In this document: piece after piece, positions 3,333 through 36,679 of the stretch | How the letters are laid out: the number at the start of each line of letters is the position of its first letter | Numbering within the stretch: the stretch's first letter is position 1 | Origin: Planctomycetota bacterium | GTDB taxonomy: Bacteria; Planctomycetota; PLA2 | Direction of reading: 5' to 3' | NCBI GenBank assembly: GCA_021776785.1 | Contig: JAJFFF010000001.1 | Coordinates: forward strand, 187,129-251,128 | Length of the DNA stretch: 64,000 nucleotides | Notes under the pieces: model-generated | What the model saw: only the letters and a program-made list of their open reading frames with translations | Told to the model about the DNA's origin: nothing | Database searches by the model: none | Position numbers and translations under genes: made by a program

Positions 3333-5015
3333 GTGACGATTTCACTAAGGGTAAAACGGGGCGACGAACCGGCTCGGCAGGTCGATTTCGACCAGGTCAA
3401 GGTCATGGTGGGGTCGAACCCGCGCTGTGACCTCACGATCGAGGATCCGGGCGTCGATCCCGAGCAGTGCCTGGTCATTGCGCGCGGCGAGAGTGTCGAG
3501 ATCATCGACATCGGGGCGACCGGCGGCGTTTTGCTGAACGGAAAGCCGGTCCGCCACGCCGTCTTGGACGGCGGCGACGAAGTGTGGGTCGGGGGCACGG
3601 TGTTTTCTGTCGTCGGGAGCGACGAGGAGGCCGTGTCGTTTACGGAGTCGGTGTCCACGGTGCGCGCCGAGCTCGACACGAAACAGGAAGGAGCCGGCGC
3701 GGCGACCAAGCCGCGTCCTCAGCGTTCCGTGGGCGAGCCCGTGCTGCGCACACGCAAACCGGCGAAGGCAGCGGACACGCAGGGTCAGGTGTTTGCCCTC
3801 CTGCATCAGGTGCAGCGGCTGATCCAGTCGATCGGCACCAACGAGAACATTTTCGAGGCGATCCTCGACACCGTGTTTGCGACCGTGCCGGTGCGGCGTG
3901 CGTTTATCGGGTTGCTACGTCCCGCCGGCGATCTTTCGATCAAGGCGCACCGCAGCCGCGAAGTGGGACATACGGCCGGCGAACGCATCGAAGTCAGTCG
4001 CACGTTGGTCGGGCGCGTCATCGAGTCCGGTCGTGCGGTGCTCACATCGGACGCGGAAGCGGACGGCGACTTCAGTGCTGTGCAATCGATTCAACGGTTG
4101 CGCATCAAAGCGGCGCTCTGTGTCCCGCTCGTGATCGAGGACAAAGTCATCGGCATCCTGTACGGCGACAACCGCGAAAAGCCGGGCAGTCTGACGCGCG
4201 ACCATCTTTCGATTGTTTCCGCGTTGAGCAGCGTGGCGGCGGTGGCCGTGGAGCAGTTCCGACTGCTTGACGAATACAACGCGAAGGTCAAGATCGACCA
4301 AGCGCTCGCCATTGCGCAGTCCATTCAACGGAACTTCTTGCCGGATCGACCGCCGGCGATCGCGGGCCTCGACGTCTGGGGTCAAAGCGACAGTTGCGAC
4401 GAGACGGGCGGCGACTACTTCGACTACTTCACGCTCAAAGACGGCGCCTTGCGCGTTGTGATCGCGGATGTGACCGGCCACGGGGTCGGCCCGGCGCTGC
4501 TCATGGCGTCGGCGCGTTCGGCGTTGCGCGTGCTCGTCGATGCCGAACCGGATCTCGAGAAACTCGCCGACCGGCTCAACAACTTGATCGCGTCCGACGT
4601 CAACGACGGTCGCTTCATCACGTTGTTTATCGGCGACATGACGCCGACATCGTTTCGCCCGTTGGGCGCGGGCCACACGCCGCCGATTTGGTTTCGCGCC
4701 ACATCTCGAACCTTCCATCACGTGGCGAGTCTCGGTCCGCCGCTCGGCATCTTGCCCGGCATTCACTATCGGTGCGGTACCACGCTGCCGGTCGTCTCGG
4801 GCGATGTGATCTGCTTTTCAACCGACGGCATCATGGAGGCCATGAACGGCGCCCGGGAGCTGTTCGGAATCGAGCGGATCGAGCAGGTGATCGCGCGCCA
4901 CGCGGGTGAAAGTGCGGCCACGATCGGCGAGGCGATCCTCAGCGCCGTCGATGATTATGTGCAGGGAACGCCGCTTCACGACGACGCCACGCTGGTGATC
5001 GTGAAGATTCTATAG
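3333..5015 (+). CDS. FHA-GAF-PP2C (SpoIIE/RsbU-type) serine phosphatase
   Basis: FHA fold: VTISLRVKRGDE...VMVGSNPRCDLTIEDPGVDPEQCLVIARG...LLNGKPV. A GAF-like middle region follows. PP2C/SpoIIE motifs: GGDYFDYF...ADVTGHGVGPALLMA...FSTDGIMEA. The track ORF starts at 3156, but the real start is more likely GTG 3333 or ATG 3405, after the convergent PDZ gene. Confidence 0.75.
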   Translation: MTISLRVKRGDEPARQVDFDQVKVMVGSNPRCDLTIEDPGVDPEQCLVIARGESVEIIDIGATGGVLLNGKPVRHAVLDGGDEVWVGGTVFSVVGSDEEAVSFTESVSTVRAELDTKQEGAGAATKPRPQRSVGEPVLRTRKPAKAADTQGQVFALLHQVQRLIQSIGTNENIFEAILDTVFATVPVRRAFIGLLRPAGDLSIKAHRSREVGHTAGERIEVSRTLVGRVIESGRAVLTSDAEADGDFSAVQSIQRLRIKAALCVPLVIEDKVIGILYGDNREKPGSLTRDHLSIVSALSSVAAVAVEQFRLLDEYNAKVKIDQALAIAQSIQRNFLPDRPPAIAGLDVWGQSDSCDETGGDYFDYFTLKDGALRVVIADVTGHGVGPALLMASARSALRVLVDAEPDLEKLADRLNNLIASDVNDGRFITLFIGDMTPTSFRPLGAGHTPPIWFRATSRTFHHVASLGPPLGILPGIHYRCGTTLPVVSGDVICFSTDGIMEAMNGARELFGIERIEQVIARHAGESAATIGEAILSAVDDYVQGTPLHDDATLVIVKIL

Positions 5016-5065
5016 CCAGGCCCCGGGACGACGCTCTGGGCAACCGTTAAGATGGGCGGTTCGCC

Positions 5066-7165
5066 ATGGCACAAAACCAGACTTCCCGCGGTGGATCGAC
5101 CCGCCGCCGAGCCAAGACCGTGACACCCTCTGAGAAGCGCAACCAAGCCTCGCCGTCGCATCCCGTCGCGCACTACCCCGGCCACGCGGAGGTCTATCGC
5201 TTGATGACCTTGACGCGCCTGATCGACGACGAAGCGCCGAACTTTTTGCGCAAGGCGTTGGGCTGGTCGTACCACGCCCCGTGTGCCGGCCACGAAGCGA
5301 TTCAGCTGGCGTTGGGTTGCAGTTTTCGCGCGAGCCACGACTACCTGTTTCCGTACTACCGTGACTTGGCGACGTGCCTTGCCGCGGGCATGACGCCGAC
5401 CGAGATCATCTGGAACGGATTGTCGAAAGCGAACGATGTTGCCGGCGGCGGTCGGCACATGTCGAACCACTTCGCCAAGCCGTCGATTCACGTCCAGAAC
5501 GTGTCGAGTTGTGTCTCCAACCACAGCCAGCACGCGGCTGGGTTGGCGCGCGCGGTCAAGCACTACGGTTCCGATGCGGTTGTGTTCGCCAGCTTCGGCG
5601 AGTCGTCGGCGTCCGAAGGCTATGTATTCGAAGCGATCAACGGTGCCAGCCGCGAGCAGCTGCCGGTTGTGTTTGTCATGCAGGACAACGGCTACGGCAT
5701 CGGCGTGCCGAAACGCGAGCAGAGCGCGAATGCGCGCATCGCGGAGAACTTCAGCGGGATTGCGAATCTAAAGATCGAATACTGCGACGGCCGTGACGTC
5801 GCCGATTGCTTCCGTGCGATGGCGGAGGCCATTGCGTTCGCGCAGTCTGGCGAGGGTTGCGCGATTGTGTACGCCGATTGCGTCCGCATCGGTTCGCATT
5901 CCAACTCTGACGATCACAAGCAGTACCGCAGTCAAGAGGAACTCGATGCCGCGCGCGAGCGCGACCCGCTGCCGATCTTTCGCGAGACATTGCTCAACGA
6001 AGGGCACATGTCGAAGGACGAGCTCGCCGCCGTCGAGGCGCAAGTGAAAGCAGAGTTCGACCAGGCCGTCATCGACGGGATGGCGGCGGAGCCGGCGGAC
6101 CCGACCACCGTGCTCGAACATCTTTTGCCGCCCGCGTTCGACGCGGTGGAAGAGGCGAGCGACGAAGGACCGACGTGCACGATGCGCGAGGGCATCAACC
6201 GCGCGATGAAGGGTGAGTTTCGCGCCAACCCGGACACGTTTATGTGGGGCCAGGACATGGCCAGCGGGACCAAAGAAGGCATCTTCAAGGTCAGCGACGG
6301 GATGCAGGCGGAGTTCGGGGAGGCGCGTGTGTTCAACGCGCCGATCGCGGAAAACTACATCGTCGGAACGGCGAACGGTTTCTCGCGTTTCGATCCCAAG
6401 ATTCGCGTCGTGATCGAGGGGGCGGAGTTTGCGGACTACATCTGGCCCGCGTTCGATCAGGTAATCGAGCTCAGCCATGAGTACTGGCGGACCAACGGGC
6501 AGTTTTCGCCCAATGTCGTGGTGCGCCTCGCGTCCGGCGGCAACATCGGCGGCGGCCTCTACCACAGTCAAAACATCGAAGGCATTTTGGCGAACATTCC
6601 CGGCATCCGTGTTGTGCAGCCGGCATTCGCCGACGACGCGGCGGGACTGTTTCGCACAGCGATTCGCAGCCAGGGCGTCACGTTCTTTTTGGAGCCGAAG
6701 TTCCTTTACAACCAGCCGCGCACGCGGACCAACGTTCCGGATGACTTCGTCGTTCCGTTCGGAAGTGCGCGTTTGCGGCGCGAAGGCACCGATCTCTCGA
6801 TCGTGAGTTACGGGACGGGCGTGCATCACGCGATCGCCGCTGCGAACAAAGCCGAGGAGGAAGACGGCCTGTCCGTGGAAGTTCTCGATCTTCGTTCCAT
6901 CAACCCGCTCGACATGGACTCGATCGTCAAGACCGTGAACAAGACCAACCGTGTTCTCGTCGCCCACGAGGACAAATTGTTCGGCGGCTTCGGCGGCGAG
7001 GTCGCAAGCCAGATCGTGGACCGGTGTTTCGACCAACTCGATGCGCCGGTGGCCCGCGTCGGACAGGACTACATTCCGACACCGTTCGCCCGAAACCTGG
7101 AAGCGGCGATGCAGTTGAATGCGGACCGCGTCCTGAAAGCGATCCGCGACCTCGCCTCCTACTAG
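5066..7165 (+). CDS. 2-oxoacid dehydrogenase E1 component with fused alpha and beta subunits (TPP-dependent; pyruvate/acetoin/branched-chain type)
   Basis: The alpha part shows the TPP-binding pattern (YRDLATCLAAG, GESSASEGYVFEAINGAS, VVFVMQDNGYGIG). The beta part shows transketolase-like pyrimidine-binding and C-terminal domains (VFNAPIAENYIVGTANG, GGNIGGGLYHSQNIEG, GTDLSIVSYGTG). No E2 or E3 gene is adjacent. Confidence 0.85.
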   Translation: MAQNQTSRGGSTRRRAKTVTPSEKRNQASPSHPVAHYPGHAEVYRLMTLTRLIDDEAPNFLRKALGWSYHAPCAGHEAIQLALGCSFRASHDYLFPYYRDLATCLAAGMTPTEIIWNGLSKANDVAGGGRHMSNHFAKPSIHVQNVSSCVSNHSQHAAGLARAVKHYGSDAVVFASFGESSASEGYVFEAINGASREQLPVVFVMQDNGYGIGVPKREQSANARIAENFSGIANLKIEYCDGRDVADCFRAMAEAIAFAQSGEGCAIVYADCVRIGSHSNSDDHKQYRSQEELDAARERDPLPIFRETLLNEGHMSKDELAAVEAQVKAEFDQAVIDGMAAEPADPTTVLEHLLPPAFDAVEEASDEGPTCTMREGINRAMKGEFRANPDTFMWGQDMASGTKEGIFKVSDGMQAEFGEARVFNAPIAENYIVGTANGFSRFDPKIRVVIEGAEFADYIWPAFDQVIELSHEYWRTNGQFSPNVVVRLASGGNIGGGLYHSQNIEGILANIPGIRVVQPAFADDAAGLFRTAIRSQGVTFFLEPKFLYNQPRTRTNVPDDFVVPFGSARLRREGTDLSIVSYGTGVHHAIAAANKAEEEDGLSVEVLDLRSINPLDMDSIVKTVNKTNRVLVAHEDKLFGGFGGEVASQIVDRCFDQLDAPVARVGQDYIPTPFARNLEAAMQLNADRVLKAIRDLASY

Positions 7166-7222
7166 TTTTTGAGCCACAAACGGCGAAGCACGCACACCGG
7201 CCCTGTGCTAGGTTGATTCGTA

Positions 7223-7860
7223 TGGCCAAGCAGCCGAAGCTCGATGCGCTTGTGTTGTGTCAATCGATCGGCACCGACGAGCACCGAACGCGTTGGGATC
7301 TTCAGGGCGTGATTCGCGGTCGACTCGAAAGCACCGAGTTCCCGCTGCGCCTCCCCAGCCTCGGCGTCTACCTCGCGCTCACGGGCATGCACGGCGAGTA
7401 TGAGTTTGCGCTCGAGATCGTGGAACTCGCGACCGACCGGGTGATCACCGGCACGCGCATGAACGACGCCGTGCGAATCGACGATCCGCTCACGGCTTTC
7501 ACCGAGTGCATTCCGCTGCCGGCCGTCGTGCTCGAAAATCGCGGTCGCTACGCGTGCCGCCTGCTGGTGAATGGGGCTCTTTTTCACGAATCGACTTTCG
7601 ACGTGGATTGGCCCAAACCCGCCCAAGCGCAGGGGAGCATGAGTCCGACCAGTTTCGCCCGCGTGATCGAGCGCTTGAAGGCGAAGGAACCGGGTCTTTT
7701 AGACGCGAAGCTCGCCGAGATCTGTGGCGTCGATCCACAAGTCATCGAGGCGATGCAGAGGTCGTTTGAAGGGCTTGACCCTCAACTCGGCCAGGAGGTG
7801 CTCAGCCGGCTGTGCCACCACTACCGCCTGCGGCCGGAAGAGTTCTTCGAGGCCCACTAA
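7223..7860 (+). CDS. hypothetical protein (~212 aa), function unknown
   Basis: The ORF-track frame has an internal ATG at 7223 (MAKQPKLDALVLCQSIG...) after the E1 stop. I recognise no family. A T-rich hairpin follows it. Confidence 0.45.
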
Positions 7861-7972
7861 ACGCGTCGGCTGGCGTGGCGTTCGTTTCAGCATGGAGCGC
7901 GCGGGAGCCTCGCTCGCACGAACAAATTAGCGCGACGCGACACAGTAAAACTGGTCGCGCCGCGAAAAGCAG

Positions 7973-8012
7973 CCGGGGAGGCCGGTCCCCAGCCTTTGTT
8001 TGTTCGTTGTTT
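7973..8012 (+). terminator. candidate intrinsic terminator
   Basis: A short GC hairpin (GGGGA GGCCGG TCCCC) is followed by a T-rich run (cctttgtttgttcgttgtttgtgttgtg) between convergent genes. Confidence 0.35.
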
Positions 8013-8035
8013 GTGTTGTGGGTGCGGCTGCGCCG

Positions 8036-8260
8036 CTACTTGGAACTCGTCTTGCGCTTTTTGCGCGCGGGCGGCTTCGGCGGGGGCGGGCATTCGCACC
8101 ACCCCTCCAAATGACCGCAGTCGAGGCAGGTTTCGTAACGCTCGTGGTCGCAAACGACACAGCGAAACACGCCTTCTTCATCCTTGTAAGCCGTCGCGCC
8201 GCACTCTTCGCAGCGCCGCTTGGGCAAGGTCATAAGGCGTCGGTAGTTGATTTCATCCAT
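8036..8260 (-). CDS. small double Zn-ribbon protein with Lys-rich C-terminal tail
   Basis: Four Cys pairs (CEEC, CVVC, CLDC, CEC) in 74 aa, with a KKRKTSSK tail. A perfect TATAAT -10 box lies ~50 bp upstream on the same strand. Confidence 0.55.
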   Translation of the reverse strand: MDEINYRRLMTLPKRRCEECGATAYKDEEGVFRCVVCDHERYETCLDCGHLEGWCECPPPPKPPARKKRKTSSK

Positions 8261-8316
8261 AGATTGCCACTGGCAGCTTGGCTGCCTCCGGATGGAGGAT
8301 CCATCCGCAATCCATC

Positions 8317-8322
8317 ATTATA
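8317..8322 (-). promoter_or_regulatory. candidate -10 box (TATAAT) for the Zn-ribbon gene
   Basis: attata on the plus strand equals TATAAT on the minus strand, ~50 nt upstream of the ATG at 8260. There is no convincing -35 element. Confidence 0.3.
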
Positions 8323-8341
8323 CCACGACGTTGATTGTGAC

Positions 8342-9250
8342 TTAATCGCTTATGGCTAAACGGGTTACGTCCTTGGCCTTGGCGGCCTGGCGGGCCGCCG
8401 CCTTGTCGCCGGCCCGCTGATAGGCCGCGCTGAGGCCGCCATAGTGACGGATCGGGTCCAATCCGGTGTTCCAACACAGCTTGGCGCGGCACACGGGGCA
8501 TAAGACGGCGGGGCGTCGGTCGGACTCGCCGAGCGTGCGGACGCCGTTCATCAGGCATTTGTAGAAGATGCAGTGCGCCATCGAGAGCATGTGGCCCGAT
8601 TCATGGAGCGCGAGCGTCAGGACGCGGCGCAGATAGCGGGGGTCTTTGGCGCTACCCAGCCGTGATGTGCTCATGACGCCGACGCGAAGCCGAAAATGCG
8701 CCCAGCCAAAGGTCGGCCCGTGCTTGGTCAGGTGCAGATCGCGATCCGTCACGCCCAACACAAACACGCCGTCTTGCGGGAGTGCGGTGCGCAGCGCGGG
8801 CACCAGCTGCAAGATGTCGAAGCGGCGGCCCCCCGGGCGATACGCACGTTTCGGCATCGCCTGCGGCTTTAAGACCTTCACGTCCAAGCCGTAAAACGCG
8901 CGCATGACTTGGGCGAGTTTGGAAAGCAGCTTCTTATCCGACGGCGGCTGCGTGAGGAGGGGCAGCACGTAGATCTTTTTTCGGACGCGATCGGGACGCG
9001 TGGGTCCCACTTCGCGGTACTCGCGAAACGTCTGGCCGTCCTCGGGAAACACGTCCAACCACTCGCCGACCTTCGGCGCGGGGAGCGTTTGCCAGAAGTG
9101 GCCCGGTGCGGGGACGTCGGGTCGCTTTTCGGCGGCCCAGAGCGCCCAAGGCCAGGCCAGCGGCAACACGAGGAGGGCCAGGACGGTCCCCACGACCGCG
9201 CGGGGCCGCCAACGGCCCGTCCGGGGCGACGTTTTGGTGTTCCGATGCAC
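8342..9250 (-). CDS. archaemetzincin-like zinc metalloprotease (peptidase M54 family)
   Basis: HESGHMLSMAHC...C...C then CPVC matches the archaemetzincin HExxHxxGxxHC plus Cys4 signature. There is an N-terminal TM/signal segment. Confidence 0.7.
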   Translation of the reverse strand: MHRNTKTSPRTGRWRPRAVVGTVLALLVLPLAWPWALWAAEKRPDVPAPGHFWQTLPAPKVGEWLDVFPEDGQTFREYREVGPTRPDRVRKKIYVLPLLTQPPSDKKLLSKLAQVMRAFYGLDVKVLKPQAMPKRAYRPGGRRFDILQLVPALRTALPQDGVFVLGVTDRDLHLTKHGPTFGWAHFRLRVGVMSTSRLGSAKDPRYLRRVLTLALHESGHMLSMAHCIFYKCLMNGVRTLGESDRRPAVLCPVCRAKLCWNTGLDPIRHYGGLSAAYQRAGDKAAARQAAKAKDVTRLAISD

Positions 9251-11087: not shown

Positions 11088-12155
11088 ATGCGTATCGGAC
11101 TGCGGATGGCGGTCGCCGCCCTTGCGGGCGCACTAGCCCTGTCCACATCAGGTTACGCCCAGTCGCTCGAGGACAAGCTCGAGAAGAAATTGGCGAAAGA
11201 CTTCGTCAAGAACGCGACCTGGGAACTCGACCTCGAAACGGCCAAGAAGAAATCAAAGGAGTCGGGCAAGCCGATCTTCGCGTACTTCACACGTTCGTAC
11301 GCGCCATGACCCCCTTGCAATGCGCTTGAGGGCGGTGCCCTCAACTCCGAAGATTTTAAGAAGTTTTCCAGCAACGTCGTGCTCTACCTGAACATCATGA
11401 CGCGGATTGAAGGCCGCAAAGATGATGCTCTGCTGAGTGAGCTCGCCGATCGTGTCGCCTTCCCCACCATGATGTGGCTCGGCGATGACGGTAAGCGCCT
11501 CGCCGGCCAGTCCGGCCGCGCCGTCGCTGATTTCGAAACGACGGCTGGTCTCCTCACCAAGCGTGCGGAACTGGTCAAAAAAGTTGCCGCTGGCGACAAG
11601 GACGCGAAGACCGAGTTGATGTTCCTCGAGTGCGATCTCGGCATCATCGACTTCGACACGCTCGAAGAGGGCGTGGATGTTTCCAAGCTCACTGCCAAGC
11701 AAAAAGAAACGTTCCAGCGCATGCGCGTCGATGCTGAAATCGACGACCTGCTGGCGATCGTAAGCGCGCGTCACAAGAGCCGCGAGGCTTATGAGACGGC
11801 CGTTCGCACGGCGGGCAAAGAGTTCGCGGCGATGGCGGCCAAGGGCGTCAAGCCGTCGAACAAGAACAAGCGGTTGCAGTACTTCCAGGCGATCTTTAGC
11901 TACGGCATGATCACAAAGGATGCTACGACGGCGACCGTTGGCTTGGACGGGCTCGAAGCCGGTCTTAAGGACAACGAACGCGCGATGACCTGGATTAACA
12001 AACAGCGTCAGGTCTTAAAAGACATGGCCGCCGATGCCGCCGATGAGGCGTGCGGGGATGGCTGTGAAGGTTGCGGCGAAGGCTGCGGCGAAGGTTGCGG
12101 CGAAGGTTGCGGCGACGGTTGCGGCGACGGTTGCGGCGACGGCTGCGGCGGATAG
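11088..12155 (+). CDS. candidate selenoprotein: periplasmic thioredoxin-fold (Thioredoxin_7-like) protein with U-P-P-C redox motif (in-frame TGA at 11307-11309) and C-terminal (GCGD/E)n Cys-rich tail
   Basis: Track ORFs 11088..11309 and 11379..12155 are in the same frame. They are separated only by the TGA at 11307-11309, with 23 stop-free codons between them. Read-through gives ...KPIFAYFTRSYAP-U-PPCNALEGG..., with Sec at the first Cys position of a WCxxC-type motif. A downstream Trx-fold continues (AFPTMMWLGDDGKRL). An 8-bp hairpin with a GGU apical loop lies 17-35 nt after the UGA. There is a signal peptide, and an SD (aaggaa) before the ATG. Confidence 0.6.
12055..12152 (+). repeat. tandem 12-nt coding repeat (ggYtgcggcgaM) x8 encoding GCGE/GCGD units
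   Basis: Direct tandem copies are visible in the sequence. They translate to CGDGCEGCGEGCGEGCGEGCGDGCGDGCGDGCGG at the C-terminus of the Trx-like gene. Confidence 0.85.
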
Positions 12156-13408: not shown

Positions 13409-14581
13409 TCAGCGGCGCAGTTGGCGGGCGGCCGCGATGACAAGGTCCGCCGCCGTGGCGATCTCGGTCTCCGTCGTGAATCGGCCCAGGCCGAAGCGGA
13501 GCGAAGATCCGGCGCGGCTGGGGTTTACTCCCATCGCCGCCATGACGTGCGACATCGAAAGCTGGCCCGAGGCGCAGGCCGCCCCGCTCGAAATGGCGAT
13601 CTCGGGGACGGCCATCATGAGCGCTGTGTTTTCCACGCCAGGGATCGAGATGTTGAGGTTGCCCGGGAGCCGACCGTCGGGGTCACCGTTTTCTAATAGA
13701 TCGGGAATCCCGTCCTGGAGCCGGTCGCGCAGACGGTCGCGCAGGCTCGACACGCGGGCGGTCTCCTCGTCCATTTCGAGGCGGCACAGCTCGCACGCCA
13801 TCCCGAGTCCCACGATGCCGGGCACGTTCAGCGTACCCGCGCGCATGCCGCGCTCTTGGCTGCCGCCGAAGTTTTGCGCGACCAGGCGGACGGCCGGGTT
13901 GCGGCGTCGCACGTACAGCGCGCCCGCCCCTTGAGGTCCGTGAATCTTGTGCGCGGTGAGCGAGGCGAGATGGATGGTATCGGTGATCACGTTGAGGGGT
14001 AAACGTCCCACGCCCTGTGTGGCGTCCGAGTGGAGCCAGGCGCCGCACGCTTCCGCGATCGCGCCCAACTCGCGCACCGGTTGCGTCGTCCCGATTTCGT
14101 TGTTCGCCACCATCACCGACAGGAGTGCTGTCTTTTCGTCGGCGGCTGCGCGCGCGGCGTCCACCGAAACGCGTCCGAGAGAATCGACGGGCAAGACGGT
14201 GACCCGGACGCCCGCGGCTCGCAGCGACTCGACCGTGTCGAGCACGGCGGGGTGTTCAATCGGCGACGTGATGATGTGGTCGCGGACATCGCGGCGCGCG
14301 GCGACCGCCCCGCGAATCGCCAGGTTGTTGGATTCGGTCGCGCCCGAGGTGAACACGATTTCCCGGGATTCGGCGCCCAACAGTTGGGCGACCTGCTCGC
14401 GAGCGCGCTCGACGGCTTTTTCCGCATCCCAGCCAAAAACATGCGACCGGCTGGACGCATTGCCGAATTTCTCGCGAAAGTACGGCAGCATCGCGTCGAG
14501 CACCCGGGGGTCCACGGGCGTTGTGGCGTGATTGTCCAGATAGATCGGCATCGGATCGGGGCAGGGGGCGCGGTCGCTCAT
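13409..14581 (-). CDS. iscS: class I cysteine desulfurase (IscS/NifS family, PLP-dependent)
   Basis: IYLDNHATTPVDPRVLDAMLPYF, FTSGATESNNLAIRG and SLTAHKIHGPQGAGALYVRR (PLP lysine motif) are all present. It is divergent from the A-type Fe-S carrier gene. Confidence 0.9.
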   Translation of the reverse strand: MSDRAPCPDPMPIYLDNHATTPVDPRVLDAMLPYFREKFGNASSRSHVFGWDAEKAVERAREQVAQLLGAESREIVFTSGATESNNLAIRGAVAARRDVRDHIITSPIEHPAVLDTVESLRAAGVRVTVLPVDSLGRVSVDAARAAADEKTALLSVMVANNEIGTTQPVRELGAIAEACGAWLHSDATQGVGRLPLNVITDTIHLASLTAHKIHGPQGAGALYVRRRNPAVRLVAQNFGGSQERGMRAGTLNVPGIVGLGMACELCRLEMDEETARVSSLRDRLRDRLQDGIPDLLENGDPDGRLPGNLNISIPGVENTALMMAVPEIAISSGAACASGQLSMSHVMAAMGVNPSRAGSSLRFGLGRFTTETEIATAADLVIAAARQLRR

Positions 14582-14716
14582 TCCCTGGCTCGTCGGATGG
14601 TATCATTGGTGCACAAGAGGCCCGCGCGCCTCTAACTCGTGTTGTTCCAAAGACTTATCGAATCTACAGATTAGGATCGGTTGGCGGAGCGGCCAGGATC
14701 GGAGTCGGAGAGCATT

Positions 14717-15052
14717 ATGCCGAGCATCAGCATCACCGAAAAAGCGGCCGTCAAAGGCAAGGAACTGATCACGTCCCAGGCAGAAGGGATGGAGCAGCCG
14801 GGTCTGCGGGTGCGCGTCATCGGCGGCGGCTGCTCCGGCATGATGTATCAGATGGAGTTCGCCGACGGCCAAGCTGAAGGCGACGAAACGATGGAGCGCG
14901 ACGGCTTTCGGGTCTACATCGACAAGAAGTCGCTCTTTTTCCTCAACGGAAGCGAACTCGACTATCTCGAGGGCCTAACCGGAGCAGGGTTCAAATTCAA
15001 AAACCCCAACGCCACCGGCACCTGCGGCTGCGGCGAATCGTTTAGCGCCTAA
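14717..15052 (+). CDS. A-type iron-sulfur cluster carrier (IscA/ErpA/HesB family)
   Basis: MPSISITEKAAVKGKELI... ends in the conserved C-terminal CGCGESF. It is divergent from the cysteine desulfurase. The track ORF starts at TTG 14681, but the ATG at 14717 fits family N-termini. Confidence 0.8.
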   Translation: MPSISITEKAAVKGKELITSQAEGMEQPGLRVRVIGGGCSGMMYQMEFADGQAEGDETMERDGFRVYIDKKSLFFLNGSELDYLEGLTGAGFKFKNPNATGTCGCGESFSA

Positions 15053-15054
15053 AC

Positions 15055-15553
15055 CAACACCAACGGAACCAGCGGTCGGCGGACCCAGCGCGACGACCGC
15101 CTCAGCGATAAAGCCACCAGCATCCGCGGAGCGCGAGACACGCGCAGCAAGCGTGAGCGGCATTTGCGAACAACCCCAACCGCAAATCGATCGCATTCCT
15201 CTAGCCACTCAACGGCGTCAGCCGGTGAGGAATAAACACAGAACGGCGTCAGCCGGTGAGGAATAAACACTTGCGAACGACCCCAATCACGAAGCGATTG
15301 CGGTCCTCTACCCGCTTCACCGGCGTCAGCCGGTGAGCCATAAACACAGACCGGCGTCAGCCGGTGAGCCATAAACACAGACCGGCGTCAGCCGGTGAGC
15401 CATAAACACTTGCGAACGACCCCAATCGCGAAGCGGTTGCGGTCCTCTACCCGCTTCACCGGCGTCAGCCGGTGAGCCATAAACACAGAACGGCGTCAGC
15501 CGGTGAGCCATAAACATTTGCGGAGGACCCCAATCGCGAAGCGATTGCGGTCC
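15055..15553. repeat. compound REP/BIME-like intergenic repeat array
   Basis: About 7 copies of a 26-27-nt near-palindromic unit (ggcgtcagccggtgagccataaacac), mostly separated by 5-nt linkers. They are interleaved with 3-4 copies of a 51-nt unit (ttgcgaacgaccccaatcgcgaagcgattgcggtcctctacccgcttcacc) containing a CAATCGC-GAA-GCGATTG hairpin. The last copy forms a long GAGGACC..GGTCCTC hairpin abutting the stop of the minus-strand nuoB paralog. It lies between convergent genes. Confidence 0.85.
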
Positions 15554-16084
15554 TCACGCAACAGCGTCTTTGACCTGATCGAGGATCTCTTCGGCGTTTT
15601 TTTCGCCGCTGATCTGGTCTTGGAGCGTCATCAGCGCTTTGAGCACCGCTTCGGGGCGCGGCGGGCAACCGGAGATGTAGAGATCGACGGGGACGACCTC
15701 ATCGATGCCCTGGACCACCGGATACGACCGGAACATGCCGCCACTGCTTGCGCACGCGCCCATAGCGATCACCCATTTGGGCTCCGCCATCTGGTCGTAC
15801 ACGCGGCGCATGACGTCCGCCATCTTGTAGGTGAGCGTGCCGGCCACGACCATCACGTCGGCTTGCCGCGGGCTAAACCGGGCCACTTCGGCGCCGAATC
15901 GCGCCATGTCGAAGCGCGAACACGCGACGGCCATGAATTCGATGGCGCAACAGCTCAGGCCCATCGGCAGCGGCCAAAGTGAGTTCTTGCGGCTCCAGTT
16001 GACCAGCGCATCCAGGCGCGAAACGAAGAACCCGCCCTCGGTCTGCTGGTCGGGGGCATGGACATCGACGGTGGCTTTGCTCAT
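15554..16084 (-). CDS. nuoB: NADH-quinone oxidoreductase subunit B paralog (NuoB/NQO6, 20-kDa Fe-S subunit), monocistronic and head-to-head with nuoA
   Basis: [23 protein letters not shown]..., [14 protein letters not shown] and [13 protein letters not shown] are the N2 cluster ligand motifs. It is highly similar to the NuoB encoded at 16750. Confidence 0.85.
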
Positions 16085-16252
16085 GACGTGGTCAGTATAT
16101 CCTTTGGACCAAACGAGGTCGCGGCAAAGGGCGAACTACAGCCCGGGAAACCGCTCTTTGAGCGGGCATATCTGGAGAGCGGGGAGGCCCGATGGCATAA
16201 TCCCGCGCTCTGGGGCCTAGGGTCCCGTTTTGCCCCTCTCAACCACCCAAAA

Positions 16253-16750
16253 ATGCTCACGGCCTCGACACTATTCCAGGGGTTCGGGAACGTTCTCGTC
16301 TTCGGCGCGTTCGGAGCGATTTTCGTTTGGCTCAACCTCTTCGTCATCGGCAAGCTCCTTTTACGGCGCCCCGAGGCGCCCGACCAAGGCGACAAACGCA
16401 CCACCTATGAGTGCGGCGAACCGACGATTGGCGACGCGTGGATTCGGTTTGATATCCGCTTCTACACGATCAGCTTGATCTTTTTGATCTTCGACATCGA
16501 AGTCGCGTTGCTGTTTCCGTGGGCTGTGGTCTACGACGAATTCATCGCGGCCGGTCACGGCCTTGCGGCGTTTGTCGAGGTCTTGGTGTTTCTCGTCGTG
16601 CTCGGCGTCGGCCTCGCCTATGTCTGGGTGCGGCGCGACATCGAGTGGACGAGCACGCGCCCTGGACGCGCGGTGTCTGAAGAGACGCTCGAAGGCGGCG
16701 TTGTGCGGGAGCCGCCAGTGGCGGCGAGCCCGACGGAGGAAGTGTCGTAA
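16253..16750 (+). CDS. nuoA: NADH-quinone oxidoreductase subunit A
   Basis: [28 protein letters not shown]...[41 protein letters not shown] is the canonical NuoA/ND3 sequence. The internal ATG at 16253 is preferred over the track start at 16058. There is a 40-aa acidic/Pro C-terminal extension. Confidence 0.85.
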
Positions 16751-17841
16751 TGGCCGATCCCAAGACCATTCGTCCCGACACGGCGCGGCCTGGACGCCCG
16801 GCATACATGCCGCCGCCGGAGCGCTTCGATCCCGAGCTCGAACAGACGATTCTGCTCACCAAAGCGGAGTGGTTAATCGACTGGGGACGCAAGTCCGCAC
16901 TCTGGCCGTTGGGTTTTGGTCTCGCTTGCTGCGCGATCGAGATGATCTCGACGGCGATGGTGAAGTACGACATCTCGCGTTTTGGCGCGGAGGTGTTTCG
17001 CGCGACGCCGCGCCAAGCCGACGTGATGATCGTGGCCGGCACCGTGACGCACAAAATGGCGCCGCGCGTGCGTCGCCTTTGGGATCAGATGTCGAAGCCC
17101 AAGTGGGTGATCGCGATGGGTGCTTGCACCGTCGGCGGTGGCCCCTACTTCGTGCATGGCTATCACGTCGTGAAGGGCGTCGATAAGGTCGTGCCCGTCG
17201 ACATCTACTTGCCGGGTTGCCCGCCTCGCCCCGAAGCGTTGCTGGAAGCGGTCATGCGGTTGCAGGAACTCGTCACGTCGCGTTCCAAGCGTCTTAACGA
17301 TCAGGATCCCGACTACACGCCGCCCGAAAAGGGTTCGGTGCAAGCGGTGATGGATGGTTTGAGTCCGGCCGAGCCGTGGCTCACCGACGAGGCGAAGGTC
17401 CACAACGCCAAGAAGCAAGCGGCTGAAGAAGCGGCGGCCAAGAAGAAGGCGGAGGCTGCCGCTGCGAAGAAGGCGGCCGCGGAAGCCAAGAAGAAAGCCG
17501 CAGAAGAAGCCGCCGCGAAAGAAGCGGCGGAGCCCAAAGCCGATGCGCCCAAGGCGGAGCCGAAAGCCGACGCGCCCAAGGCGGAGCCGAAGGCCGACGC
17601 GCCCAAGGCGGAGCCGAAAGCCGACGCGCCCAAGGCGGAGCCGAAGGCCGAAACGCCCAAGGCGGAGCCGAAGGCCGAAACGCCCAAGGCGGAGCCGAAG
17701 GCCGAAGACGCGAAGCCTGCTGCTAAGCCGGACGCGCCCAAAGCGGACGCGCCGAAGCCGGACGCGGCTCCCAAGGATGCGCCCCAAAAAGAGGATCCCA
17801 AGAGCGGCGATCCCAAGAGTGGCGATGGGGGTGACGCATGA
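16750..17841 (+). CDS. nuoB: NADH-quinone oxidoreductase subunit B with ~180-aa Ala/Lys/Pro/Glu low-complexity C-terminal extension
   Basis: The NuoB core ([49 protein letters not shown]) is followed by (AEPKADAPK)n repeats. The start overlaps the nuoA stop. Confidence 0.9.
17534..17710 (+). repeat. tandem 27-nt coding repeat (~6.5 copies) encoding KAEPKADAP units
   Basis: The unit gccgaYgcgcccaaggcggagccgaaR recurs directly in the sequence. The antisense ORFs in the track (GRFGLRLRL...) are artefacts of this repeat. Confidence 0.85.
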
Positions 17842-23876: not shown

Positions 23877-25436
23877 ATGTCAGCGCTGACCTTTGCCATT
23901 TTTGCCCCGATTGTGGGCATGATCGCCATCCTCTTTGTCAAAAAAGAGGAAGCCGAGAAGGCGAAAACCATTGGTTTTCTCACCTCGCTGGTGATGTTTG
24001 CAGCCTGCACGTATGTCGCGTGGCAGTGCTTCCACATTCCGGAGGGCCAGCAGTACGTTCTGGAATCGAAGGCGCTTTGGATCGACCTCGGCGGGTCGTT
24101 CCAAGTGCACTATCACATCGGCGTGGACGGCTTGTCCGGCATGCTGATCTTCCTGACGGGTTTGCTGTCGGTGTGCGCCGCGCTCGCGTCGTTCACGATC
24201 AAGCAAAGCGTGCGCGGCTACTGGGCGATGTTCCTGTTGCTCCACTGCGGCGTCATCGGAACGTTTGCGTCCTTAGACATGTTCCTGTTCTACGTGTTCT
24301 GGGAGATCATGCTCCTGCCGATGTATTTCCTCATCGGCGTGTGGGGCGGGCCGCGGCGGATCTATGCCGCGATCAAGTTCTTCCTATACACGTTGTTTGG
24401 CTCGATCTTCCTGCTCGCAGGCATCCTGATCGTGTACTTCGCCGTTACGGCGGAGGGTTCCGGATTTACGGGGAACCCATTTAGCATCCCGGACCTAACG
24501 GACTACGCGCTCGCGATGAAGGGGAGCGGAGGCATCCTCCACAACTTCGCGTCGAGCCTGTCGTGGATCCCAACGGCTGTGTTCTGGGGTATGTTCGTCG
24601 CCTTCGCGGTGAAGGTGCCGGTGTTCCCGTTCCACACGTGGTTGCCCGACGCGCACGTTGAAGCGCCGACGCCGATCTCGGTCATCCTGGCCGGCATCCT
24701 GTTGAAGCTCGGCGGCTACGGCATGTTGCGCATCAACTTCCCGCTGTTCCCCGAGGTGTTGGCGGATAGCGCGTTCATCATCGGAACGTTGGGCTGTATC
24801 AGCATCGTGTACGGCGCGCTCGTCGCGATGGCGCAGACTGACTTCAAGAAGATGGTCGCGTACTCGTCCGTGTCGCACATGGGCTTTTGCTTGCTCGGCT
24901 TCGCATCGATGACGAGCGAAGGCATGAACGGCGCGATTCTGCAGCTGTTTAACCACGGCACGATCTCCGGCATGCTGTTCTTGGTGGTCGGCGTCGTGTA
25001 CGAACGCGCGCATCACCGCGACTTAAACCGCTTCGGCGGCTTGATGTGGCGCATGCCTGTGTACGCCACGATTTCGTCGATTGCGATCTTCGCGTCGATC
25101 GGCCTCCCAGGCCTGTCCGGTTTCTGGGGCGAGTTCTTGTCGTTCGCCGGATCGTTTAAGGGCCTCTACAGCGGCGCGAAGATCATCACGGTCATCGCTA
25201 CGCTCGGCCTTGTGTTCACGGCGGCGTACTACTTGCGCGCCATCCAAAAGGTGTTTCTCGGGAAGACCAACCCCGCGTGCGAACAGTTCCCTGACCTGGA
25301 CAAGCGCGAGTTCTGGATGATCATGCCGCTGCTTGTGCCGACGATCTTGTTCGGTATCTATCCGAAGTACTTAATCGAGATCTACCAACCGTTCGTGGAG
25401 AGCTTCATGACCCTGGTGGCTAAGGTCGGAGCGTAG
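23877..25436 (+). CDS. nuoM: NADH-quinone oxidoreductase subunit M (ND4)
   Basis: FYVFWEIMLLPMYFLIGVWGG...HTWLPDAHVEAPTPISVILAGILLKLGGYG is canonical NuoM. Confidence 0.9.
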   Translation: MSALTFAIFAPIVGMIAILFVKKEEAEKAKTIGFLTSLVMFAACTYVAWQCFHIPEGQQYVLESKALWIDLGGSFQVHYHIGVDGLSGMLIFLTGLLSVCAALASFTIKQSVRGYWAMFLLLHCGVIGTFASLDMFLFYVFWEIMLLPMYFLIGVWGGPRRIYAAIKFFLYTLFGSIFLLAGILIVYFAVTAEGSGFTGNPFSIPDLTDYALAMKGSGGILHNFASSLSWIPTAVFWGMFVAFAVKVPVFPFHTWLPDAHVEAPTPISVILAGILLKLGGYGMLRINFPLFPEVLADSAFIIGTLGCISIVYGALVAMAQTDFKKMVAYSSVSHMGFCLLGFASMTSEGMNGAILQLFNHGTISGMLFLVVGVVYERAHHRDLNRFGGLMWRMPVYATISSIAIFASIGLPGLSGFWGEFLSFAGSFKGLYSGAKIITVIATLGLVFTAAYYLRAIQKVFLGKTNPACEQFPDLDKREFWMIMPLLVPTILFGIYPKYLIEIYQPFVESFMTLVAKVGA

Positions 25437-31157: not shown

Positions 31158-31463
31158 TTACATCAGCCCGAGCTGTAGCTTGGCTGCTTCGCTGAGCTTG
31201 GTCTGATCCCAGGGCGGATCCCAAACCAGGTCAACGGCGGCGGTGTCGACGCCTTCGACGGCGAGGACTTTTTGTTCGACTTCGCCGGGCAGCGTGCCCG
31301 CCACCGGACACGCCGGCGACGTCAGCGTCATCTTCACGTACGCGTGGTCATCGGCATCGACCTTGACCTCGTAGATCAAGCCCAAGTCGTAGATGTTGAC
31401 CGGAATTTCTGGGTCAAACACCGTTTGCAGCGCCGCGATGATGCGTTCTTTTGTGGATTCCAT
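31158..31463 (-). CDS. sufT: Fe-S cluster assembly protein SufT (DUF59/MIP18 family)
   Basis: IYDLGLIYEVKVDADDHAYVKMTLTSPACPVAG matches DUF59. It is the last gene of the suf operon. Confidence 0.75.
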   Translation of the reverse strand: MESTKERIIAALQTVFDPEIPVNIYDLGLIYEVKVDADDHAYVKMTLTSPACPVAGTLPGEVEQKVLAVEGVDTAAVDLVWDPPWDQTKLSEAAKLQLGLM

Positions 31464-31478
31464 CGTTTCGTCTCTCTT

Positions 31479-31922
31479 CTACTCCGTGGTCGCGACTTTG
31501 TCTTCGCCCTTGAGCGCGGCGAGCAGTGTGTGCCACGACAGCGTCGCACACTTTACGCGCATCGGGAACTCTCGCACGCCGGAGAACACGGCCAATTTTT
31601 CCAAACTTTCGTGGGGCTCGACCGGCTTCGTGACCAACTCGCGAAAGTGGCCAAACAGCTCTTTGGTCTGCGCCACGGTCATGCCCTTGACCATTTGCGT
31701 CAGCAGCGACGCCGATGCCGTGGAGATCGCACATCCCTGCCCCTGAAACGAGACGTCCGCGATGGTTTCGCCGTCCATCGTCACGAACATGTGAATGCGA
31801 TCGCCGCAAAGAGGGTTGTGCCCATCGGCTTCGCGCTGCGCGTTTTCGATCACACGAAAGTTCCGCGGCTTGCGCCCGTGGTCCAGAATCAACTGCTGGT
31901 ACAGATCGCGCAGTTCGCTCAT
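31479..31922 (-). CDS. sufU: SufU/IscU-like Fe-S scaffold / sulfurtransferase (NifU N-terminal fold)
   Basis: NPLCGDRIHMF, FQGQGCAISTASASL and VKCATLSWH are present. The internal ATG at 31922 overlaps the sufS stop. Confidence 0.8.
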   Translation of the reverse strand: MSELRDLYQQLILDHGRKPRNFRVIENAQREADGHNPLCGDRIHMFVTMDGETIADVSFQGQGCAISTASASLLTQMVKGMTVAQTKELFGHFRELVTKPVEPHESLEKLAVFSGVREFPMRVKCATLSWHTLLAALKGEDKVATTE

Positions 31923-33157
31923 GCGCCAAACAACTCCCGCACCTGGGCCATACCCGCCGCCAATGCGGCGACTTCTTCGTGCGTGTTGTAGAGCGCAAAC
32001 GACGCGCGCGCCGTCGCGTGGACGCCGAAGCTCTCCAGCAACGGTTGCGCGCAATGGTGGCCAGTTCGTATGGCGACGCGAGCTTGGTCCAGGATCGTGC
32101 CGATGTCGTGTGGGTGCACACCATCCATGACGAACGCGACGACGGCCGCTTTGTGGGCTGCGGTCCCGATCAGGCGGACATCATCCCATTGACGTAGCCG
32201 GGCGGTCGCGTCGTCATGCAGCGCACGCTCGTGAAGCGCCGCCCCGTCGAGGTCGATGGTCTTCATCCATTCGAGCGCCGCGCCGAGGCCGACGGCGCCC
32301 GCTATGTTGGGCGTCCCGGCTTCGAACTTATAGGGCAGGTCGTTCCAGACGGTGTTGGTCAGCGACACCAGTTTGATCATGTCGCCGCCGCCTTGATAGG
32401 GCGGCATGTCGTCCAGTAACTCCTGTTTCCCGTAAAGCACGCCGATACCAGTCGGGCCGAAGACTTTGTGGCCGCTAAACGCAAAGAAGTCGGCGCCCAA
32501 CGCCTGCACATCGACGCGCTGGTGCGGCATCGCCTGCGCCCCGTCCACCAAAACGGCGACGCCGCGCTCATGCGCAAGGCGGACGATCTCGGCAACCGGG
32601 TTGATCGTACCGATCGCGTTGGACGTATGCACCACCGACACAAACTTCGTGCGTTCGGTGAGCAATGCGCGCCACGCGTCGAGGTCGAGCTCGCCCTGCG
32701 GCGTGACGGGCGCGACGCGAACGACCGCCCCCGTCTGCTCCGCGACCATCTGCCACGGCACAAAGTTGGAGTGGTGCTCCATCTGCGTGATCAGGATTTC
32801 GTCGCCGGCGCCCAACAGCGGTCGCACATAACTCTGCGCGACCAAGTTGACCGACTCGGTGGTCCCGCGCGTGAACACGATCTCACAACGATCATGGGCG
32901 TGGATGTAGCGCTGAACGATGTCCCGCGCGTTTTCGTAGCGCCGCGTGGCCTCCGCGCTTAGGCGGTGGACGCCGCGGTGCACGTTGGACGTAGCGTCGC
33001 GATACAGGTCCAGGACCGCATCCAGCACACACTGCGGCTTTTGCGCCGTCGCCGCGTTGTCGAGATACGCGAGCGGCGGCTCCGTACCCGATGAGCGGGC
33101 AAAAAACGGGAAGTCGTTGCGAATCGCATCGACAGAAAATCCGGTGGCCTGAGACAT
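31919..33157 (-). CDS. sufS: class II cysteine desulfurase SufS
   Basis: AYLDNAATAQKP, FSGHKVFGPTGIGVLYGK and RTGHHCAQPLL (active-site Cys loop) are present. The start is at ATG 33157; the track ORF has a 147-aa spurious N-terminal extension. Confidence 0.9.
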   Translation of the reverse strand: MSQATGFSVDAIRNDFPFFARSSGTEPPLAYLDNAATAQKPQCVLDAVLDLYRDATSNVHRGVHRLSAEATRRYENARDIVQRYIHAHDRCEIVFTRGTTESVNLVAQSYVRPLLGAGDEILITQMEHHSNFVPWQMVAEQTGAVVRVAPVTPQGELDLDAWRALLTERTKFVSVVHTSNAIGTINPVAEIVRLAHERGVAVLVDGAQAMPHQRVDVQALGADFFAFSGHKVFGPTGIGVLYGKQELLDDMPPYQGGGDMIKLVSLTNTVWNDLPYKFEAGTPNIAGAVGLGAALEWMKTIDLDGAALHERALHDDATARLRQWDDVRLIGTAAHKAAVVAFVMDGVHPHDIGTILDQARVAIRTGHHCAQPLLESFGVHATARASFALYNTHEEVAALAAGMAQVRELFGA

Positions 33158-33183
33158 GGGGAAGCGCGCGAGGCGCTGCGGGA

Positions 33184-34452
33184 CTAATCGATTTCGTCCG
33201 GCAGACGCTCCGCGATCAAGTTGTTGATGTGTTCTCGGACGGGCTCGATCTCGATTTGATTGGTGACTTCGCTCGCGAAGGCGCGAACCAAGAGCTTGCG
33301 AGCTTCCGGCGCTCGTACGCCGCGCGCACGCAGATAAAACAGCGCGTCCTCGTCGAGCTGACCGATCGTCGCGCCGTGCGTGCACTTCACGTCGTCGGCG
33401 TAGATCTCCAACTGCGGCTTGGAGTCCGCGACCGCCTCGTTGCTGAGCAGTAAGTTTGAGCTCGACTGCTTGGCGTCGGTCTTTTGCGCGTCGGGGAACA
33501 CGTGGATGTATCCGCTGAACACGCTGCTCGACTGATCGCCGAGGATGCCCTTGTACAGCTCGTGGCTGTCGCAGTGCGGCTTCCGGTGCTCCAGCCACGT
33601 GTGATTGTCAACGTGTTGCGCGTCTCTCGTCAATGAAACGCCGTTGAGCGTCGTGACAATCCCTTCGCCGTCGAGCGCGGCGCGCAGGTTGTTGCGGACA
33701 AGGCGCCCGCCGACGGTCGCGACCGAATTCGTCAACCGCGAATCGCGATCCTGGTGGATGTGCGTCGCCGTAACGTGAAGTGCGTGGTCATTTTCGGTCT
33801 GCAAGCGATGGTGAACGAAGCTCGCGTTGGCGCCGACGATTGTTTCCGTCACCGAGTTGGTGAAGTGCGCTGCCTCGCCGTGCGAGACGTACTGTTCCAC
33901 CAATGTCGCTTCCGCGCCGTCGTCGATCATGAAGAGGTTGCGCGGATAAACCGACTTTTCGGTGCCCACATAGAGCACGTAGAGCGGTTCTTCGATGCGC
34001 GTGCCTTTGGGCACATGGAGAAACGCACCGTCTTCTAGAAACGCCGTGTTGAGGGCGGTGAACGGCTGCGTTTCGGCATCCGCGAACTTCGCCAGACGCG
34101 CGCCGACCAAGTCGGGGTTTTGTTCCAGCGCGTCTTTCAGGCTTAGGAAGGTCACGCCGCTCGGAACGTGCGACAGATCCGCGCGGAAGTGGCCGTCCAC
34201 AAACACGAGTCCGCGGCCGAGGCCGAGTGACTGGGCGTCGGCCGACGCCAACAGGTTGGTCGTGGGGCGTCCCAGCGGCAACGTGAGGTTGGCGATGGGA
34301 GACACATCGGTGTACGCCCATTCCTCCTCGCGGCGCGTCGGGAAGCCGAGCGCGCGGAAGCGATCGATGGCGCGACGCCGCAGCGTCTGCACGGCATCGT
34401 CGCGCCCATCCGCGAACTCATTAAACTTGGTAGCAAAATGCTCGGTGTTCAT
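33184..34452 (-). CDS. sufD: Fe-S cluster assembly protein SufD
   Basis: Between sufC and sufS. C-terminal SufB/D beta-helix signature (LLLSNEAVADSKPQLEIYADDVKCTHGATIGQLDEDALFYLRARG). Confidence 0.85.
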   Translation of the reverse strand: MNTEHFATKFNEFADGRDDAVQTLRRRAIDRFRALGFPTRREEEWAYTDVSPIANLTLPLGRPTTNLLASADAQSLGLGRGLVFVDGHFRADLSHVPSGVTFLSLKDALEQNPDLVGARLAKFADAETQPFTALNTAFLEDGAFLHVPKGTRIEEPLYVLYVGTEKSVYPRNLFMIDDGAEATLVEQYVSHGEAAHFTNSVTETIVGANASFVHHRLQTENDHALHVTATHIHQDRDSRLTNSVATVGGRLVRNNLRAALDGEGIVTTLNGVSLTRDAQHVDNHTWLEHRKPHCDSHELYKGILGDQSSSVFSGYIHVFPDAQKTDAKQSSSNLLLSNEAVADSKPQLEIYADDVKCTHGATIGQLDEDALFYLRARGVRAPEARKLLVRAFASEVTNQIEIEPVREHINNLIAERLPDEID

Positions 34453-34464
34453 CGGTTCTCGCTT

Positions 34465-35223: not shown

Positions 35224-35225
35224 GA

Positions 35226-36674: not shown

Positions 36675-36679
36675 ACCTA

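Follow-up and report, generated by a model that had tools for sequence, protein, structure and literature searches.

Among the short intergenic repeats described in bacteria, mycobacterial interspersed repetitive units (MIRUs) occupy about 40 loci per genome, between co-directional genes of operons, and the BOX elements of Streptococcus pneumoniae, with the layout boxA-boxB(n)-boxC, form a dispersed and probably mobile family of more than 100 copies. Repetitive extragenic palindromic (REP) sequences carry a conserved unpaired tag, GTAG or CGTC, at one end of the stem; clusters of REPs often occur as tandem reiterations that take in flanking DNA, GTAG REPs have been reported in the Planctomycetes-Verrucomicrobia-Chlamydiae (PVC) superphylum, which includes the Planctomycetes, and R. 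baltica is named among the species in which several REP families coexist (Di Nocera et al. 2013, PMC3733652). Here we analyse a compound repeat array in a stretch of 64,000 nucleotides from a Planctomycetota bacterium (assembly GCA_021776785.1, contig JAJFFF010000001.1, positions 187,129 to 251,128), hereafter the window, to which all positions refer. The array lies in the 501-bp spacer between two convergent genes, one for an IscA/HesB-type Fe-S carrier on the + strand and one for a stand-alone NuoB paralog (nuoB') on the - strand. An earlier note on this DNA had likened the array to REPs and to bacterial interspersed mosaic elements (BIMEs). We propose that it is probably a lineage-specific compound tandem duplication of the terminator module at the 3' end of nuoB', that is, a bacterial minisatellite, whose role would be at most that of a redundant terminator and 3'-end protector.

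The array occupies positions 15164-15561 and is an ordered head-to-tail mosaic of two units, arranged as B0-A1-A2-B1-A3-A4-A5-B2-A6-A7-B3. The A unit (GGCGTCAGCCGGTGAGCCATAAACAC, also written as the pattern GGCGTCAGCCGGTGAG..ATAAACA) is present in seven copies at no more than two mismatches, starting at 15214, 15245, 15322, 15353, 15384, 15461 and 15492, with a period of 31 nt (26 + 5). The B unit, with the pattern CCAATCRCGAAGCGRTTGCGG, measures 48 nt where it stands between blocks of A; there are three good copies and one degenerate copy, and its 30-nt core was found three times (starts 15279, 15418 and 15526). For the A unit and the B core alike, shuffled sequence gives an expectation of zero. 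All seven A and all four B units point the same way, with matches on the + strand only. A near-palindromic unit of about 26-27 nt in some seven copies spaced 5 nt apart, as the earlier note had it, is therefore what the array contains. The second, hairpin-bearing unit was likewise counted correctly (three to four copies, which we resolve as three plus the degenerate B0), but it is 48 rather than 51 nt long, and the CAATCGC-GAA-GCGATTG hairpin ascribed to it is perfect in B3 only, B1 and B2 having one substitution each.

Listed as features of the nuoB' (-) strand, the units begin on the iscA side with B0 (15164-15211), apparently an old, degenerate B copy, which no longer has the canonical hairpin and reads CTAG in place of the GTAG of B1 and B2. 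It is followed by A1-A2 (15212-15270), an identical pair that shares a GGAAT variant and has a 4-bp CGGC/GCCG stem. The next B copies, B1 (15271-15318) and B2 (15410-15457), have their single stem substitutions in CAATCAC and GCGGTTG, respectively, and each has GTAG abutting its hairpin on the 5' side, as read on the - strand. Between them are A3-A4-A5 (15319-15409), which are 100% identical and carry the hairpin ACCGGC-GTCA-GCCGGT, the stem of A3 reaching 8 bp through flanking TC/GA. A6-A7 (15458-15517) complete the A series, and the A7 tail, which reads AUGUUUAU on the - strand, forms a U-rich tract directly after the hairpin of the terminal copy, B3 (15518-15561), which spans the nuoB' stop codon and is probably the native nuoB' terminator. 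The rest of the spacer, 15053-15163, is unique sequence of 111 bp assigned to neither strand; it contains very little T (6 of the 111 nt, + strand) and no significant hairpin (-16.6 kcal/mol, z=-0.85, for 15060-15110). The mosaic thus exists as first noticed, but it does not fill the whole intergenic space.

Identities among the copies are graded. B1 and B2 are identical at 46 of 48 positions, B0 agrees with either at 36 of 48 (75%), and B3 shares its first 38 nt with them, at 3 differences from each, before entering coding sequence. The Tandem Repeats Finder program reported periods of 31 nt (2.9 copies, 100% matches), 108 nt (94%) and 139 nt (94%, score 556), the two higher-order periods corresponding to B+2A and B+3A. 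With units of 10-150 nt repeated head to tail at high identity and at a single locus, the array conforms to the description of a tandem repeat or minisatellite. It is not a CRISPR array, as the A units are only 5 nt apart and the B units that intervene are themselves repeats.

Of all the units, only B3 forms a strong structure. This copy (TTGCG-GAGGACC-CC-AATCGC-GAA-GCGATT-GC-GGTCCTC-A-CGCAA) forms a stem of 19 bp that is interrupted by a bulge and a 2x2 internal loop; its inverted-repeat arms, 15523-15537 and 15541-15555, are 93% complementary, and pairing of TTGCG with CGCAA extends the stem to 15518-15561. Its computed folding energy is -35.1 kcal/mol (z=-6.6) as - strand RNA and -30.6 kcal/mol (z=-7.3) as + strand RNA. 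The arm on the nuoB' side holds the TGA stop codon (15556-15554 on the - strand) and the last two sense codons, and the hairpin is followed on that strand by AAAUGUUUAU. B3 accordingly has the composition of a putative intrinsic terminator, namely a GC-rich stem-loop and then a U-rich tract at the 3' end of a gene. The interrupted terminal hairpin of about 16 bp reported previously is hence real and larger than described, although it was placed after the stop codon of the nuoB paralog and in fact contains it. The role proposed for it, to terminate or stabilise the nuoB' transcript, appears plausible, with a strong stem-loop at the gene end and AAAUGUUUAU behind it.

The remaining hairpins are weaker. 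On the - strand, the other B copies fold at -23.2 kcal/mol (B1, z=-2.9), -22.5 kcal/mol (B2) and -22.6 kcal/mol (B0, flanks included), and B2 prefers an alternative pairing, GUGAAGCGG/CCGCUUCGC. Stems in B measure 13-19 bp and are interrupted, and those in A measure 4-8 bp around a 4-nt loop; the A hairpin ACCGGC-GUCA-GCCGGU reaches -12 kcal/mol, the AACGGC variants only -7. All seven UGUUUAU tracts on the - strand sit 2-6 nt past a hairpin, and six of the ten hairpins behind B3 are followed by such a tract within this distance. A terminator consensus scan of positions 14500-16300 returned 7 sites, versus 1.7 expected from shuffles; four of these are overlapping registers of A4 and A5, and the A units were flagged on the - strand only. 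On the + strand, the loop region of B reads GCGAAGC, which is an extraordinarily stable DNA mini-hairpin motif (PMC13037366).

As a whole, the array folds better than its shuffles on both strands (z=-4.7 for the - strand, z=-6.4 for the + strand), and its eleven stem-loops are regularly spaced, as could be expected of an independently expressed structured noncoding RNA, acting either as a sponge or decoy for an RNA-binding protein or as a set of tandem small RNAs. Excess folding is, however, what any array of palindromes would show, because any stack of palindromes folds well. In addition, Rfam contains no family that matches the array, a scan for sigma-70-like promoters gave no site within or beside it, and the search for homologues yielded none from which covariation could lend support, the relatives being without the array. 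The loops, UGAC and UUC, hold no known protein-binding motif such as GGA. We regard an independent RNA as very unlikely. The specific idea of a CsrA-type sponge was rejected, given that GGA loop motifs are missing.

Comparison with related genomes places the array in the context of a rapidly changing spacer. The closest homologues of NuoB' are 84-89% identical and come from Planctomycetota wherever their source is labelled. Eight relatives keep the convergent nuoB'/iscA synteny, with spacers of 28-230 bp: 28 bp in L091, about 29 bp in L012, about 35 bp in L013, 44 bp in L092, 77 bp each in L003 and L005, 91 bp in L008 (GCA_021776735.1) and 230 bp in L009. None of these eight relatives carries an A or a B unit, and the unique segment 15053-15163 is not similar to any of their spacers. 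Because the relatives' spacers are short and lack both units, the 501-bp spacer is best explained as a private expansion of this lineage. The nuoB'/iscA spacer is generally labile, with fast turnover in the clade. Between two metagenomic relatives, L009 (2457-2686) and L092 (1324-1367), for example, the final 33 nt of nuoB' are identical while the spacers are wholly different.

Two of the eight relatives have a hairpin where B3 stands. In L009, the hairpin GCUGAAAUCGC-UUC-GCGAUUUCAGC overlaps the stop codon of nuoB' and has the 15-mer AAUCGCUUCGCGAUU in common with B3; in L091, a GCGC-UUC-GCGC hairpin lies within the 28-bp spacer. The core CGC-TTC-GCG thus recurs at or just past the nuoB' stop in both. 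The occurrence of a similar hairpin at the same gene end suggests, with moderate support, that the core of B is native to this locus as the terminator hairpin of nuoB' and not an imported element. At the iscA end of its spacer, L009 also has a textbook bidirectional terminator, AAAAAACCCC-GTAG-GGGGTTTTTT.

Further copies of the units were sought widely. Neither A nor B has a copy outside the array in the 64-kb window; as candidates for degenerate copies, word-7 blastn searches of the window with A, B0, B2, B3 and the unique spacer returned chance matches of 8-15 nt, which were rejected. The A pattern (23 specified bases) has no exact match in GTDB, taken as one genome per species for 185,579 species, among the JGI metagenomes (241 million records) or among the IMG/VR viral contigs. 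The B pattern is absent from the same 185,579 species genomes and from the IMG/VR viral contigs, and the whole array gave no blastn match among the PLSDB plasmids. Within the window and these public collections, the units occur only here, an outcome that the earlier note associated with a local duplication rather than a REP family.

These results bear directly on the REP/BIME interpretation, according to which the units belong to a dispersed palindrome family that is mobilised by a REP-associated tyrosine transposase (RAYT) encoded elsewhere and has been reiterated here with flanking DNA. A and B are both short (20-40 bp) imperfect extragenic palindromes that form stem-loops, as REPs are, and lie directly past a stop codon; the hairpins of B1 and B2 are immediately preceded, on the - strand, by the tag GTAG known from REPs (GGGTAG-AGGACC...), and such REPs are on record in the PVC superphylum, with several families in R. 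baltica (PMC3733652). If the family were a small one of 20-100 copies, moreover, no more than about one other copy would be expected in 64 kb. Against this, the many dispersed copies that characterise REPs were found neither in the window nor in the collections, and a census of GTAG-tagged hairpins in the window gave four isolated, unrelated sites and no family. The tag is also inconsistent: B0 has CTAG, B3 has GTGA as part of the coding sequence, and the A unit is untagged at its ends, with a CGTC that falls within the stem and loop. The uniform head-to-tail orientation differs from the inverted pairs of REP doublets forming hairpins (REPINs) and from the alternating orientation of BIMEs (Y/Z; head-to-head or tail-to-tail, HH/TT, dimers). 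Looking for a RAYT gene, as had been advised, gave nothing in the window, where Pfam scans of about 49 open reading frames (ORFs) found no Y1/RAYT protein (PF01797) and no transposase of any family. The similar hairpin core at the same gene end in relatives points to a native origin instead. The REP/BIME/RAYT interpretation is thus not supported by what we found, and we consider it unlikely. Less probable still is a bolder version, in which B is the first known representative of a GTAG-tagged REP family, new to the literature, from an uncultured lineage of the Planctomycetota and the array is a BIME-like cluster in the course of formation; such a cluster would be unusual in running head to tail throughout and in joining the REP to a second, untagged hairpin (A), and a RAYT elsewhere in the genome would be the driver. 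A dispersed family, if it existed, would extend REP/RAYT biology in Planctomycetota.

Local duplication of a terminator module would account for the anatomy of the array. Read on the nuoB' strand, the module would consist of a long B hairpin over the stop codon, UGUUUAU, the short GC hairpin A and a 10-nt linker, and it would have grown by repeated local duplication, through unequal recombination or replication slippage. Slippage is classically promoted by stable hairpins in single-stranded DNA, and the GCGAAGC mini-hairpin in B would be expected to favour it. Because the identities among the copies are graded, several rounds of duplication are likely. An old round may account for B0 and for the variant of A that goes with it (A1 = A2); a more recent duplication of 108/139 nt would then have produced B1-A3-A4-A5 and B2-A6-A7; and very recent 31-nt duplications may have given the identical A3, A4 and A5. 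The near-identity of copies points to recent slippage and makes variation in copy number probable.

In functional terms, B3 with AUGUUUAU would be the working intrinsic terminator of nuoB' and a barrier to 3'-exonucleases, and the ten hairpins behind it would be either back-up terminators or neutral passengers. Back-ups downstream might have a use, since B3 would be melted by any ribosome that reaches the UGA within it and terminates there. The weaker folds of B1, B2 and B0 (-22 to -23 kcal/mol) fit this picture, since unselected copies are expected to weaken. The array would also keep convergent transcription from iscA apart from nuoB'. More speculatively, the C/A-rich, T-poor unique segment after iscA is compatible with factor-dependent termination of that gene.

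Several points weigh against the terminator-duplication model. The A unit matches nothing in the window or in the relatives, and an inserted foreign element could have been its seed. One simple tandem duplication is insufficient, because the array both starts and ends with B. The U tracts are poor for an intrinsic terminator (5 U in 8), and the uniqueness of the units holds for the window and the public collections. The homology of B3 to the hairpins of L009 and L091 rests on a palindromic core of 9-15 nt that is thermodynamically favoured, so that convergence is possible; the GCGAAGC/GCUUCGC core may have arisen independently because the motif is an exceptionally stable DNA mini-hairpin (PMC13037366). 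Finally, L092 has the same 3' codons of nuoB' as L009 but no hairpin.

An independent assembly bears on whether the order of the units can be trusted. A Logan contig from run SRR15505517 matches the window exactly from the iscA side, across the unique spacer and through B0-A1-A2-B1, which gives independent confirmation of the array's left half. It stops at the B1/A3 junction, which is the first 31-mer common to B1 and B2 and the place where a k=31 graph would have to branch. A contig from the nuoC side ends in the 27-nt coding repeat of nuoB and is uninformative on the right half. The Logan contigs recovered hold window sequence only and break at both repeats. Such breaks of an independent short-read assembly, inside the array and in the nearby coding repeat, are what one would see if the number of units, or their order, were an artefact of repeat collapse or expansion during assembly. 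The exact match through the unique spacer and the first four units speaks against this, as do single-nucleotide differences diagnostic of individual units (GGAAT versus GCCAT in A; A in B1 versus G in B2), which make the order unambiguous. The existence of the array would not be in doubt even if the copy numbers were wrong, and we hold an artefact of this kind to be highly improbable.

The genes on either side are as previously described. The IscA/HesB-type carrier (14717-15052, +; 111 aa) matches PF01521 Fe-S_biosyn (E=7e-22), and the NuoB paralog (15554-16084, -; 176 aa) matches PF01058 Oxidored_q6 (E=1e-29); the two converge on the array, and nuoB' is divergent from the nuoA-nuoB-nuoC-nuoD-nuoH... 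operon, whose start is at about 16.1 kb. The exact IscA-type protein is also encoded on the Logan contig SRR15505517_38109; no exact record was found for NuoB' or for a 519-aa ORF of the nuo region (23877-25436). A derivation of the A unit from the 3' end of iscA (CACCGGC...GCCTAAAC...) was considered and rejected, as the resemblance is not significant.

Small open frames rich in Met and His cross the array on the - strand, and these had been set down as artefacts of the repeats, a view that our results uphold. The frames of 109, 63 and 67 aa have a GC content at third codon positions (GC3) of 0.46-0.59, versus 0.78-0.81 in the flanking genes, and the 63-aa ORF has no homologue among 5.8e9 protein clusters in a word-indexed search. 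Three weak HMMER matches to array ORFs, among 1.84e9 representatives, were unrelated repetitive proteins and were rejected. The low GC3, periods (31 and 139 nt) that are not multiples of 3, and the lack of credible homologues indicate that the frames are noncoding. In Rfam, the Guanidine-II (mini-ykkC) riboswitch gave a match below threshold, antisense within the nuoB' coding sequence (15685-15730, +; 23.8 bits versus a gathering score of 32, E=0.06), which is almost certainly due to chance.

The neighbourhood of nuoB' (13409-15052) holds iscA and an adjoining gene for a class-V cysteine desulfurase. In L006, from another lineage of the Planctomycetota, the genes iscA-nuoB'-mrp/NUBPL-rrf2-sufB-sufC-sufD follow each other on one strand (4063-8732). 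The stand-alone NuoB paralog is thus linked consistently to Fe-S assembly genes and not to the nuo operon proper, and it may serve in the delivery of Fe-S clusters rather than as a second subunit of complex I.

This setting is one point in favour of a DNA-level function, in which the repeated ACCGGC-N4-GCCGGT would bind a regulator or a nucleoid protein at 31-bp phasing. Spaced 31 bp apart, or about three helical turns, the sites would all face the same side of the DNA; Fe-S assembly genes abound nearby, and the related locus L006 includes an Rrf2 regulator. The sites, however, are flanked by the 3' ends of two genes, with no promoter to regulate; no gene of the window has the motif upstream of it, the suf and nuo operons included; and the relatives do not have the sites. 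Binding sites of this kind are, in our estimate, the least credible of the explanations considered. Sites for the integration host factor (IHF) or IscR, compared by eye with their consensus sequences, gave no match.

Other features of the window include further coding repeats. The NuoB of the operon (16750-17841, +) has a C-terminal extension of about 190 aa that is rich in Lys, Ala, Pro and Glu and derives in part from a 27-nt tandem repeat (17526-17747; 6.7 copies, 95% matches; PKAEPKADA-type); the NuoB proteins of relatives are also long (290-347 aa). A 258-aa protein without a Pfam match (11379-12155, +) ends in a Cys-Gly-Glu/Asp tail, ...ACGDGCEGCGEGCGEGCGEGCGDGCGDGCGDGCGG*, encoded by seven copies of a 12-nt tandem repeat (12066-12150), and this tail may be metal-binding. 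The same gene is found on a Logan contig (L002), and L003 and L008 have Pfam-less genes of 260 and 249 aa at the matching position. A complete suf-type operon (31158-38602, -) encodes Mrp/NUBPL, SufB, SufC, SufD, SufS, a NifU-N domain protein and a FeS_assembly_P protein; with its presence, the window concentrates genes for Fe-S biogenesis and complex I. Further on, a 1260-aa protein (40932-44714, +) has a weak match to a protein-kinase domain (30.3 bits versus the Pfam cut-off of 31.7) and also carries Glucodextranase-B/Big_13 Ig-like domains and a Laminin_G_3 domain.

The biological consequences of the array are small, and it is a fairly ordinary structure that should not surprise specialists. 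The locus does show how the spacer of two convergent genes appears to have grown from tens of bp to 500 bp by stacking its own terminator hairpins. In practical terms, the array would be a handy marker for strain typing of this planctomycete by variable-number tandem repeats (VNTRs), and it explains why short-read assemblies break and why spurious Met/His-rich ORFs are called at the locus.

Compared with the systems described above, the array shares several traits with REPs and with the BIMEs of E. coli (GTAG- and CGTC-REPs; PMC3733652). The palindromes are GC-rich, imperfect and extragenic and lie next to stop codons, two types of unit are combined in a mosaic with conserved linkers, and the same roles, termination and protection of mRNA 3' ends, can be proposed; GTAG abuts two of the B hairpins, and tandem reiteration along with flanking DNA is known from REP clusters, too. 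Unlike REPs, BIMEs and REPINs, the array has no detectable dispersed copies, no RAYT in the window and no consistent tag, and its units all have one orientation, where BIMEs alternate and REPINs form inverted pairs. To file it as REP, REPIN or BIME would therefore be unsupported by its sequence. With the MIRUs and VNTRs of mycobacteria it has in common head-to-tail intergenic repeats of tens of nt that abut or overlap a stop codon; unlike MIRUs, it is confined to a single locus, lies between convergent genes and is compound, with two types of unit and nested periods. Like BOX elements, it is modular and intergenic, with a short module reiterated variably between others and a strong predicted structure, but there is no sequence similarity, and its outer module seems to have originated in the terminator of the locus. 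Its resemblance to intrinsic terminators, including those that are arranged in tandem or overlap stop codons, lies in the 19-bp GC-rich stem of B3 with a U-rich stretch at the 3' end of a gene, in A4 and A5, which the consensus scan flags on this strand as well, and in the relatives that have a single hairpin at this place; it differs from them in its short, interrupted U tracts (UGUUUAU) and in having eleven hairpins where one or two are usual. By analogy with these systems, the array looks most like a single-locus minisatellite and would work most like a tandem terminator or a REP-type 3' stabiliser.

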